Positions 14,921 to 18,417 of a DNA stretch of 27,123 nucleotides are shown here, piece by piece (position 1 is the first letter of the stretch; every line of letters starts with the position of its first letter). The notes beneath the pieces were generated by a model. It had not been told where the DNA came from. It did no database searches and saw only the letters and a list, made by a program, of their open reading frames with translations. Source of the stretch: Candidatus Heimdallarchaeota archaeon (GTDB taxonomy: Archaea > Asgardarchaeota > Heimdallarchaeia > Heimdallarchaeales > Heimdallarchaeaceae); contig JABCTC010000044.1 in NCBI GenBank assembly GCA_018238545.1, forward strand, positions 1 through 27,123. Direction: 5' to 3'. The position numbers were made by a program, and so were the translations under genes.

Positions 14921-15703
14921 TTATATTTGAATAAGTTCCAAACAATTGTTTGCTAATAATCTTATCTTTTCTAATATATTATCAAACCATTCTCTTGATG
15001 ATTGTGAAATTCCTGATTTTTTACGCTTCAATATGGGTATTTCTTCAAATCCAAATTTACTGCTTTTCTTCTTGTAAGAGTAAATAGAAATCCAGAAGTG
15101 CTGTTTTCTCATTTCTCCCTTTATTTTTTTCAATGAATTACCAAAGATATTTCGTAAGTGTTCATTTGATTTCATAGTTTCCTTAGATTTATCATTGGAA
15201 TATAATTCCCATATCAGAGTCAATCTTTTTGCAACTTGAAATAGCAATATTCGAGAAATTTCTTGTTGGTTGTAGATATAAAAAATCTCACGAATTTTGT
15301 CAAGCACAGATATGGATTCATGTATGATCTGATAACGCATCATTTCATTAAATAAAAATTTATTTCTCATATCCGTTCCATATAAAATCTTGCCATTATT
15401 GGAAAATGTATAGAAATAAAGAGAATCTATACTATTATTTATGCGATTTAAGTGAGAGACTTCAATAATTTTTATATCTAATTTTTTTTGTAACTCATTG
15501 TTTGAAAATCTCTTTAACAATTCATTATAAACTCTTTCACTTGATTTATTCTCACAAATTAGTAGAAGATCAATATCGCTTAACATGGTATCTGTACACT
15601 GAGTTACAGAACCCCCTAGAATCACTGAATGTACTAGTGGAAAGGAATTACACAATTTTAGCTCCTCTAAAAAGGAATTAATGATATTTATTGTATAATT
15701 CAA
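14921..15703 (-). CDS. MNT/KNTase-like nucleotidyltransferase with C-terminal helical domain
   Basis: ILGGS-x8-SDIDL, LDIK and GKILYGTDMR; TTG start overlaps the upstream TGA (TTGA) and has a GAGGT RBS. Confidence 0.85.
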   Translation of the reverse strand: MNYTINIINSFLEELKLCNSFPLVHSVILGGSVTQCTDTMLSDIDLLLICENKSSERVYNELLKRFSNNELQKKLDIKIIEVSHLNRINNSIDSLYFYTFSNNGKILYGTDMRNKFLFNEMMRYQIIHESISVLDKIREIFYIYNQQEISRILLFQVAKRLTLIWELYSNDKSKETMKSNEHLRNIFGNSLKKIKGEMRKQHFWISIYSYKKKSSKFGFEEIPILKRKKSGISQSSREWFDNILEKIRLLANNCLELIQI

Positions 15704-17145
15704 TATTCTAAAACCTCTTGTTTCTGAATATTTGAATTTAATAGACGGATTATCTTGAGTTTTAAAACAAAGTAAATTTGTGAATGAAATGATGATGTAA
15801 AGATGTTAAATGAATTTAAACCACTAAAAATAAGTTCCATGTTTATTGATATTTGTAAGTGAATGTCACTCTCTATTATATCTGAAATCTTTATTCTGTT
15901 ATAAAAAATCTTACTGTTTTCTCTCTCTATGAAACCATCATCATTATAATCAAATTGTGTCCAAGCATAATGTAGATATTCATCTCCTAGCTCAGCATGT
16001 GCATAATATTCTACAGAATTAGGAGTATCTGTTAATTGTGTTTCAATAAAACTATATCCATCATAATAAGATAGGAATAAATCGGTTTGATTAGAACTAT
16101 CAAAAGTTCTCCTATTATACAAAAAGAAATAATTTCCATTTGATGTTCTGAAAATTGAATCTTGATAAAATATAAGATTTCCTTGGAATTCAGCTATTTT
16201 TTTTGTCTCAAAATACGAGGAATTTACAAATTGCGTTAAAAAAATACTACTGATATTATCTGTAAAACCAGGTGAATAAGCAAATATATCAAATGAGTTT
16301 GAAACTTGAACAATTGTTATTGGTATGACAGTGCTACAATTATAGTTTATATTATAAATCTGCCATGTTTCGTTAAACCAATTAACTGCTAAATATGGTT
16401 TGTAATTCTTTGTTCCTTCATATCTTTCCCACAATACTACAGCATTGGAATTTATAATTTTAAAATCACCGGGTATAGATGAATCAAAAGTTTCAACCTT
16501 AGAGAATATTTCAGATAAAAAGGTTACTTCAGTAATACTTTCATTGTAGATAGTAGGAGTAATAATTGCTGGTAGTTGATCATTTGCAATGAAACCATAT
16601 GGATTATAAAGAAATGCGATATTGATCATGCCTAAGTCATTAAATTCCCAGTTTAGTACTTTCCCTCTTGCAGACACACTAATATTCGGATTTATATCTC
16701 TGAATGCTGAATGAATCTCCCAGGTGTTATTTTTTATAGTTAATAACTCTCCAACAGTAAAGAAAAATGAACTCATATAATGAAGATATATTACAGGATT
16801 TTCTAAGGAATCCAACTTTATTTTTATTTGGTGGACTTGTGCATAAGTCGAACCAGAAACTCTAGGAATGTGTGTTAAAAAGTTATTTTTCAAATCAAGT
16901 TCTGCATATATAATATTACTATCATAGGAATTTTTTGATTCGGTTAAGCAGAAATGAATGTATGAATCATTTTCCACAACCATATCTGACAAATTACTAC
17001 TATTCCAAAGAGGATTCGGATAAATGTATTGGTTTTTTTTGTTGTTATTTTGCTTAAATACAAAAAAAAGAGGAATACAAATACTAAAAAACAATACCAA
17101 AGTTATTGTAAAAGATGTAAAAAGATATTTAGTTTTTTTCTTCAT
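15700..17145 (-). CDS. membrane-anchored beta-rich (probable beta-propeller) protein; paralog of 918..2357
   Basis: N-terminal TM; IYPNPLWN and other shared motifs; AGGTG RBS in the 18-bp gap after the S8 gene. Confidence 0.85.
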   Translation of the reverse strand: MKKKTKYLFTSFTITLVLFFSICIPLFFVFKQNNNKKNQYIYPNPLWNSSNLSDMVVENDSYIHFCLTESKNSYDSNIIYAELDLKNNFLTHIPRVSGSTYAQVHQIKIKLDSLENPVIYLHYMSSFFFTVGELLTIKNNTWEIHSAFRDINPNISVSARGKVLNWEFNDLGMINIAFLYNPYGFIANDQLPAIITPTIYNESITEVTFLSEIFSKVETFDSSIPGDFKIINSNAVVLWERYEGTKNYKPYLAVNWFNETWQIYNINYNCSTVIPITIVQVSNSFDIFAYSPGFTDNISSIFLTQFVNSSYFETKKIAEFQGNLIFYQDSIFRTSNGNYFFLYNRRTFDSSNQTDLFLSYYDGYSFIETQLTDTPNSVEYYAHAELGDEYLHYAWTQFDYNDDGFIERENSKIFYNRIKISDIIESDIHLQISINMELIFSGLNSFNIFTSSFHSQIYFVLKLKIIRLLNSNIQKQEVLEY

Positions 17146-17163
17146 TTATACACCTTATATAGC

Positions 17164-18417
17164 TTAAGATAAAGTTTCAACAGTATATTGTATCAAATCT
17201 CTTATGTCAAGTGATCCCCAACCTACTCTGTAAGAATAAAAGCTATTGTATGTACCTGAATTGACAATTGGTTCCGCAACTACTTCCCAAGTGAGTTTGT
17301 AAGGGGATGTCCTACCATAAGGATCATTTTCACATGAAGCCATTATTGCCTCCATAAAATCGGAATATACTAATGGATCTGACATACTTAAATAATACTT
17401 CATATTAGCAGATAGATATGCTGCCACTGCAACTTGGGGTGTAGCTAAACTTGTTCCCGTTGCTCTTCTAACATCAAGGATTCCGTCATTATTCATATCA
17501 CACCGTATTTCAACTAGATAAGCTGGTGCTACAAGATTAACAGTTTTGAAATAGCGACTTGTATAAAACATACTGCCTAAATAAATACTGCCTGTTTTTT
17601 TATTAATACCTGTAGACAGTCTCCATATATCACTCCAACCCCCTTGGTAACCGTATATGCCTCCAACACCAAAAGTATAGCTATAACTTGCAGGAAATAC
17701 TCTGACGTTTTCATATGTGTCTGGAAAATCTTCGGTAGTTAATGATTCGTAGTTTCCTGAAGCTGCTACAAGAATAACTTTCTGCTGATGAAGTGCATAA
17801 AGCTCACTTGAGAAAATTTGTTCTGCTCCAAAAGACATAGAAACAACCTTATATTTTCCCACACCGTGAGCATTATTCCAAGTTTTTATTCTCTGTAATT
17901 GTGCTTTAACCAAATTAGCATCAATGAGTACTGAGTTAGGTTCACTTACCATAAATACAGACAGAGATACTTCAACATCATGAGATTCTCTTTCTAATAA
18001 TCTAAGTATTGTATGTACAATTGCAGATCCATGGTGATTTGGAGAGTCATCATATGCGTTAGCCTTTGAAACTTCATTTCCATTTCTATCATAAAGACGG
18101 ATTTGAACTAAATCAATGCTATAGCGTGAAGCAAAGTAATTCCATGTTGGATAATCAAGACCAGTATCTAAAACAGCAATTCGATAAGCAGCATGGTTAT
18201 ATCGAAGTTCTGGATAACTTGAAAAAGCTTCATTTATATTAATCCAATTTATTGTCTCGTGAGGATAGCCATCATCTTGAGTCACACTGGTATGAACAAA
18301 TTGAAAACCAATAGAAGGTGTTATTCCATTTCTATTAGAGAAACTGCTTTGATCTGAAGAAATACAACTAATTGAATATAATATGAGAATGCATAAAATT
18401 AACGAATATTTTTTCAT
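17164..18417 (-). CDS. secreted S8 family (subtilisin-like) serine protease
   Basis: Signal peptide; IAVLDTG (Asp), HHGS (His), AASGN (oxyanion Asn), GTSLATP (Ser). Confidence 0.92.
   Translation of the reverse strand: MKKYSLILCILILYSISCISSDQSSFSNRNGITPSIGFQFVHTSVTQDDGYPHETINWININEAFSSYPELRYNHAAYRIAVLDTGLDYPTWNYFASRYSIDLVQIRLYDRNGNEVSKANAYDDSPNHHGSAIVHTILRLLERESHDVEVSLSVFMVSEPNSVLIDANLVKAQLQRIKTWNNAHGVGKYKVVSMSFGAEQIFSSELYALHQQKVILVAASGNYESLTTEDFPDTYENVRVFPASYSYTFGVGGIYGYQGGWSDIWRLSTGINKKTGSIYLGSMFYTSRYFKTVNLVAPAYLVEIRCDMNNDGILDVRRATGTSLATPQVAVAAYLSANMKYYLSMSDPLVYSDFMEAIMASCENDPYGRTSPYKLTWEVVAEPIVNSGTYNSFYSYRVGWGSLDIRDLIQYTVETLS

Follow-up and report, generated by a model that had tools for sequence, protein, structure and literature searches.

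In Aeromonas sobria, the propeptide-deficient secreted subtilase ASP is bound and inhibited by ORF2, a partner encoded downstream of it (PMC5638518), and in S8-PTS a solo S8 protease with a signal peptide is followed by an exported protein and then by a cytoplasmic one (PMC9424270), with processing demonstrated (PMC13556192). In the Hailong system, HalA forms a channel with a cytoplasmic crown and is toxic without HalB (PMC13434031), while the haloarchaeal halolysin-HmHapP system has an extracellular serine protease that cleaves a secreted precursor and is used in antagonism (PMC12893001). The 27-kb contig JABCTC010000044.1 of Candidatus Heimdallarchaeota archaeon (27,123 nucleotides, analysed in its entirety and referred to here as the window) carries on its minus strand a cassette of a subtilase, a membrane-anchored beta-propeller and a nucleotidyltransferase (NTase) that can be compared with each of these systems:

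17164..18417, minus strand, secreted S8 (subtilase) protease of 417 amino acids (aa), PF00082
17146..17163, minus strand, 18-bp spacer with the ribosome-binding-like AAGGTG, from the sequence
15700..17145, minus strand, type II membrane glycoprotein with a propeller, 481 aa, AlphaFold2 model and structure matches
14921..15703, minus strand, cytoplasmic two-domain NTase, 260 aa, PF18765/PF01909

As in ASP-ORF2, the cassette S8 is propeptide-deficient and its partner gene lies directly downstream, whereas here that partner, a propeller of 481 aa anchored in the membrane, is also retained where the protease is absent, and a third gene encodes a cytoplasmic NTase. The upstream solo signal-peptide S8 and the gene order recall S8-PTS, but the cassette is archaeal, has no BetaH or toxin domain, and the product of its second gene is anchored in the membrane and is also found where the third gene is absent. 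An NTase beside a membrane protein, together with a fold match to HalB (VIA Z 9.7), resembles Hailong; in contrast, the cassette partner is extracellular, with a single transmembrane (TM) segment and about 7 cytoplasmic residues, and remains intact without the NTase. The archaeal extracellular serine protease is shared with halolysin-HmHapP, for which the abstract describes no operon-encoded propeller or NTase, whereas the cassette has no conserved precursor peptide gene. By analogy, in its way of working the cassette would come closest to a protease paired with its own inhibitor, as in ASP-ORF2. The three-gene module is real and novel in gene architecture, and apparently undescribed: no description was found in the literature, as an original prediction drawn from the sequence alone had supposed.

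Recurrence, co-inheritance and mobility of the cassette

The original prediction had proposed three co-oriented, coupled genes, and this layout was confirmed in every detail: the S8 stop and the propeller start are 18 bp apart with AAGGTG inside the gap, and the TTG start of the NTase overlaps the propeller TGA (TTGA), with GAGGT upstream of the NTase start. The conserved linkage that it made its test was likewise recovered, as the order S8-propeller-NTase was found at 13 separate loci in Heimdallarchaeaceae, which occupy varying chromosomal positions. One of them is a second copy in the same genome, on contig C82 (27-36% identity), and all three frames are whole at seven; the linkage is far beyond chance. 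The closest relative of the window cassette (75% identity) lies at a different chromosomal site. The S8 and propeller trees have supported clades in common, and the distance correlations (Mantel rho) are 0.37 for S8-propeller (p 0.015), 0.37 for propeller-NTase and 0.25 for S8-NTase, which indicate co-inheritance and not contact, because kin are not independent. The ratio of nonsynonymous to synonymous substitution rates (dN/dS) is below 0.4 for all gene pairs tested.

Cassettes lie between direct repeats of host DNA at four Heimdallarchaeaceae and about eight other Asgard loci, compared with 1 of 150 random windows. The bracketing repeats measure 198 bp (81%) at L003, 112 bp (80%) at L037 and 123 bp (99%) in G010, and a distant S8-propeller pair of this genome (contig C73) is bracketed by a 390-bp direct repeat (74%); the window's own cassette has no repeat bracket. 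Each cassette locus has a different repeat sequence, a pattern suggestive of recombination with donor flanks as the route of insertion rather than a dedicated integrase. The three genes are inherited and moved as a unit, often between long direct repeats.

The distant S8 clade (contig C73, G008 and a remnant in G029) adjoins a second family of membrane proteins, which can be aligned with the window propeller over its full length (hhalign, 368 columns, E 2.6e-4, probability 42%), so the S8-propeller pairing appears to be of old origin. Gene loss is uneven: at many loci propellers stand alone or behind S8 remnants, whereas an intact S8 lacking a propeller was observed at two (L043, L053). Orphan propellers are under purifying selection (dN/dS 0.14-0.30), and in five genomes a propeller is present while an S8 of the window clade was not found.

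Several variant copies accompany this distribution. Loci L002:4557-7463 (G000 C73), L045, L061, L084 and L085 combine a distant S8 bearing a Gly/Pro-rich tail with the second propeller family and have no NTase. In the second full triad, the S8 at L001:7425-9077 (G000 C82) follows a TM anchor and the N-terminal portion of a NosD-like beta-helix protein in a single fused chain, a predicted membrane-tethered variant, and the first 111 bp of the window are 99% identical to DNA just upstream of this fusion. Ca. Heimdallarchaeum aukensis, a cultured-enrichment genome, contains a decayed cassette copy.

The protease and its surface partner

The S8 matches PF00082 (E 1.2e-12, 48.1 bits against a cut-off of 21.8). 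The full catalytic motifs with Asp at residue 84, as originally read, correspond to residues in D-H-N-S order that are invariant in 15 homologues:

18166-18168, minus strand, codon of catalytic D84
18031-18033, minus strand, codon of catalytic H129
17752-17754, minus strand, codon of catalytic N222
17449-17451, minus strand, codon of catalytic S323

The limited room for a propeptide remarked on in the original prediction is also evident. A signal-peptide-like N-terminus (about residues 1-21, by hydropathy only) is followed by about 28 variable residues before conservation, and with it the catalytic domain, begins at about G50, and 14 of the 15 S8 rows have 35-60 residues in total ahead of the conserved start. 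An I9 domain of about 70-80 aa would not fit into so few variable residues, and Pfam returned no I9 match at E 0.5. The W58-to-D84 spacing is the one found at the mature N-terminus of subtilisins, and dN/dS is 0.34 in the catalytic domain versus 0.80 across residues 12-49. A C-terminal extra domain is absent from the window S8. The nearest solved sequences, intracellular subtilisins and site-1 protease, are reached at E 1e-11 to 1e-9, which marks the S8 as a divergent clade, and a scan of 185,579 species genomes for the S8 pattern gave at least six Asgard loci and one weak bacterial match among the matches listed. N-glycosylation sequons are depleted (20 versus 53 expected), a pattern that fits export, short of proof. 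The ESM Atlas label 'subtilase cytotoxin subunit A' (168 shared features) is an automatic name and was not used.

The partner had been described as membrane beta-propeller-like, which is upheld by its predicted fold and by its outward topology. The AlphaFold2 model (pLDDT 80.7) comprises an N-terminal TM helix and an all-beta propeller (about 41-425), and the protein can be divided into about 7 cytoplasmic residues, a TM helix (about 8-30), a seven-bladed BNR_4-like beta-propeller (41-423) and a variable tail (424-481). Sequons in the propeller are doubled (217 versus 110 expected), so it faces outward. The S8 very probably leaves the cell in active form with no folded prodomain, and the producer very probably displays the propeller on its surface. 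Pfam gave no meaningful match for the propeller protein, and the best structure match is CylK (VIA Z 26.2, 348 aligned, root-mean-square deviation (rmsd) 4.1), followed by PLL lectin (24.3), GH145 (23.6) and PL42 (22.8), all below 10% identity. As to fold, BNR-type glycan lyases and hydrolases (PL24, PL25, PL42, GH145), which are characterised by a seven-bladed propeller with family-specific catalytic His/Tyr/Arg residues, score Z 22.6-23.6 at 8-9% identity, and the ESM Atlas places the propeller near BNR_4/BNR_2 clusters (TM 0.60-0.65). Polar residues conserved at blade starts (D54, Q106, D227, E379) could make up a ligand site. With 22 clusters among 1.84 billion representatives, the propeller family is small; it occurs in 12 of 30 genomes of the family Heimdallarchaeaceae and in none of 52 others of the class, and no relative was found on viral contigs.

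Since the S8 has no I9 prodomain and the partner gene lies directly downstream, as with orf2 (PMC5638518), the propeller could be imagined as an external folding chaperone in place of the missing propeptide, like ORF2 of Aeromonas ASP. Such a role is quite improbable: propellers are under selection without S8, S8s exist without a propeller, and the S8s of Thorarchaeia, which have long prodomains, mostly still have a membrane partner. The S8s at L043 and L053 argue against strict dependence of the protease on the partner for folding.

It has also been considered that the propeller is the working product, namely an adhesin, lectin or receptor, and that the solo S8 serves to mature or shed it, in the way that solo S8s act on operon partners in S8-PTS, type VII and type V systems. 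This arrangement would suit the likeness of the fold to lectins and BNR enzymes, the blade-start polar residues as a possible ligand site, the persistence of propellers alone, and the processing of neighbours by solo signal-peptide S8s (PMC9424270, PMC13556192). It is nevertheless unlikely, as it accounts neither for S8s found without a propeller (L043, L053) nor for the NTase and the link to unrelated Thorarchaeia proteases, and no conserved cleavage site is evident in the propeller stalk or tail.

A foraging kit, in which the protease would break down protein outside the cell and the surface protein would catch substrate or peptides, with no need for contact between the parts, is similarly doubtful. 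Cognate specificity better explains why the spread is patchy, why copies diverge so extremely and why S8 and propeller are strictly paired over two deep clades, and the NTase has no obvious feeding role, even though each partial gene combination is viable, SBP_bac_5 oligopeptide-binding proteins adjoin Thorarchaeia cassettes L112 and L130 (Pfam matches) and, judged solely by size and topology, L133, and L055 is preceded by an ABC permease. Complex prediction of the S8 (23-417) with the propeller (36-428) yielded a median ipSAE of 0.01 (runs 0.34, 0.01 and 0.00), which speaks neither way.

The nucleotidyltransferase family across Asgard lineages

The third gene encodes a basic protein that matches PF18765/PF01909 and joins a Pol-beta/MNT domain (GS motif; D43, D45, D76) to a four-helix HEPN-like bundle; its AlphaFold2 model (pLDDT 88.5) comprises the NTase domain, the bundle and a basic hairpin. 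G31, S32, D43, D45 and D76 are invariant in 42/42 family members, and the GS motif, DxD and third acidic residue that characterise Pol-beta nucleotidyltransferases are all present. The original prediction had referred to MNT-type enzymes; this one has two domains and is not a minimal MNT. Fold matches (VIA Z) include AAD(9)/ANT(9) (12.2), ANT-3,9 (11.4), MNT (9.7) and HalB (9.7). The combination of a Pol-beta domain with a helical bundle is shared with ANT(9)/AadA and fused MNT-HEPN proteins (VIA Z 12.2, 197 aligned, rmsd 3.5), whereas the cassette enzyme differs from ANT(9)/AadA in its 13% identity, its score of 19 bits versus a 340-bit cut-off, its basic hairpin insertion and its tie to secreted proteases. 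It falls below every family cut-off tried (NF012212, 19 bits versus 340; NF047752, 19.9 bits versus 60). Unlike MNT-HEPN (type VII toxin-antitoxin) proteins, it is devoid of the HEPN nuclease motif RxxxxH, neither R nor H being conserved in the C-terminal bundle, and no separate HEPN gene occurs in the cassette.

A profile search confined to Asgard archaea revealed NTase relatives in two further lineages, one of which is Thorarchaeia. There, 25 NTase loci are spread over nine genera, and a secreted protease lies within three genes at 20 of them, the chance expectation of an S8 that near being about 2%. Eight of these proteases are prodomain-bearing S8s (long prodomains, with the catalytic Asp at about 155-182), and the other 12 combine a clan-CD His/Cys motif and a PPC domain with an N-terminus of YcdB/PepSY-like type. 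At 15/25 loci there is a YcdB-like membrane protein with two anchors, a homologue of the clan-CD prodomain (E 2.8e-5), and PepSY-like domains have been proposed as protease inhibitors (PMC6393860). A helix-turn-helix (HTH) regulator with a C-terminal TM segment occurs at 13/25, and Thorarchaeia cassettes are also frequently flanked by direct repeats. In the third lineage, secreted proteins bearing clan-CD motifs lie next to 2/5 NTases. The NTase tree splits by lineage, which implies that the NTase was retained while the protease and its partner were replaced. The NTase, and not the S8, is the constant part across Asgard lineages, so the original prediction, with the S8 at its core, underrated the NTase.

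Among the Thorarchaeia loci, a four-gene module of protease, HTH-TM regulator, YcdB/PepSY membrane protein and NTase in variable gene order is seen at L123:695-4973, L125, L127, L129, L131, L108, L113 and L115. At L134:1352-3529, a secreted 725-aa protein next to the NTase combines clan-CD His/Cys motifs with an HExxH zinc-protease motif.

This conservation bears on the improbable case that the NTase merely hitch-hikes on surface-gene cassettes, for example as a degenerate MNT-HEPN stabiliser. It is frequently broken, its distances correlate weakly with those of the S8 (rho 0.04-0.25) and it is missing from the distant S8-propeller clade, as a passenger would be; on the other hand, its catalytic residues are invariant in 42 members, it adjoins secreted proteases of unrelated families in three lineages, and with no conserved HEPN nuclease motif there is no toxin to neutralise. 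If the NTase were a passenger, the novelty would shrink to a variant form of protease-inhibitor operons. Far less credible is a toxic membrane protein with the NTase as antidote, by S8-PTS gene order or Hailong-like control. The order of solo S8, exported protein and cytoplasmic protein does mirror S8-PTS, and HalB is among the top NTase folds, but intact propellers are common without an NTase or next to a broken one, no toxin domain is seen, and the propeller has a single TM helix and no cytoplasmic domain.

Genomic surroundings and proposed function

The window has a lower GC content (31.5% vs 34%) and features of an island, including a HEPN fragment, a Cas1 fragment and gene remnants. Two paralogues of cassette genes lie near its start:

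918..2357, plus strand, second propeller paralogue (41% identity), without an S8 upstream in this genome
2477..3262, minus strand, second NTase paralogue (35% identity), converging on the second propeller

A syntenic copy of this propeller in G026 retains a 3' S8 remnant upstream, and the second NTase is probably from a different cassette, the closest being the NTase of the L035 triad (60%). A convergent layout like that of these paralogues in G010 consists of two facing cassettes, as revealed by a 55-bp contig overlap, which weakens the inverted NTase as a sign of shuffling.

Elsewhere in the window, an 89-bp direct repeat (98%; 18902-18990 and 20346-20434) flanks a NosD-like gene, with related pieces on C43 and C62. 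The NTase as a mobilising enzyme was rejected, given that repeat-bracketed units occur without it (L002; the window NosD gene) and that repeats are locus-specific. A Cas1 N-terminal fragment (20604-20924; PF01867, E 8.9e-8), without a CRISPR array, converges on a YaaC-like gene. A C-terminal S8 remnant of another clade (8258-8803), weakly related to the cassette S8 clade (E 0.0011), lies upstream of an intact anchored protein (8877-9542) with a paralogue on contig C102. Tandem ICMT/PEMT-like membrane methyltransferase genes (10100-11874) have a homologue downstream of the distant S8 in G008, and a protein of about 102 aa from no known family (24223-24531) recurs near cassette loci L030, L038 and L043 in several genomes. 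The same islands also harbour clustered secreted proteins of transglutaminase-like and caspase-like (C14) type that bear carboxypeptidase-regulatory-like domains (window 5492-6604; L004:2052-3110; L043:276-1658; L049). A sigma-70 promoter and terminator scan stayed at chance level, Rfam and tRNA scans matched nothing in the window, the cassette ends have no tRNA, and PADLOC returned only weak NTase-domain matches. No conserved small ORF or upstream element was found at cassettes, and a RiPP-type (ribosomally synthesised and post-translationally modified peptide) cluster was rejected on that ground.

A mobile protease kit, in which the surface partner binds and restrains its cognate protease and the NTase serves as a regulator, is the favoured reading of the cassette, if short of even confidence. 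The propeller would bind the cognate S8 and restrain or tether it, shielding the cell's own surface proteins, and cells that lose the S8 would retain the propeller as protection against proteases of neighbours. In Thorarchaeia, the membrane-anchored PepSY/YcdB-like protein, a protease-prodomain homologue, would take the propeller's slot. As the weakest step, the NTase would be a cytoplasmic control arm that transfers a nucleotide onto a macromolecule (a protein, as in MNT/GlnE, or RNA) and not onto an antibiotic, with the membrane-bound HTH regulator of Thorarchaeia as a candidate target. The immunity role given to the partner in the original prediction survives in part: co-divergence and retention after S8 loss fit protection, but S8s without a propeller at L043 and L053 argue against obligate immunity.

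A number of observations weigh against a protease restrained by its surface partner under NTase control. Co-inheritance alone would yield the co-divergence of S8 and propeller; both proteins are net acidic, and among solved folds the propeller comes nearest to lectins and to enzymes acting on glycans or small molecules, rather than to protease inhibitors. It exposes almost nothing on the cytoplasmic side that could signal, and Heimdallarchaeaceae cassettes contain no regulator. The two intact S8s at L043 and L053 lie directly ahead of the NTase with the propeller absent, and no propeller was found in G018, a genome 82% complete. The best folds for the NTase are aminoglycoside adenylyltransferases, and it is broken in 4/13 triads, some of these breaks perhaps being homopolymer sequencing errors; the frameshifts of G010 and GCA_054386015 fall in part at homopolymer sites and may be erroneous, while the H. 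aukensis NTase split is also present in a separate Logan assembly.

An Asgard-wide system is a possible, rather speculative extension of the restrained-protease reading. The NTase family would act as an intracellular hub for interchangeable secreted proteases (S8 or clan-CD, one of them with an additional zinc-protease motif), each with a cognate anchored inhibitor or receptor (propeller or PepSY-like) and, in Thorarchaeia, a membrane-bound transcription factor. Extracellular proteolysis would be controlled by nucleotidylation, and the system would spread as cassettes bracketed by repeats and would function in conflict between related cells. In Thorarchaeia, the membrane-bound transcription factor next to an S8 is reminiscent, by analogy only, of the regulated proteolysis of eukaryotes. 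The ways in which Asgard archaea, as the nearest kin of eukaryotes, affect their surroundings or each other are little known, and this module offers an unusual prodomain-less subtilase, a candidate new class of surface protease inhibitors, and a family of NTases that has exchanged partners across unrelated classes of protease.

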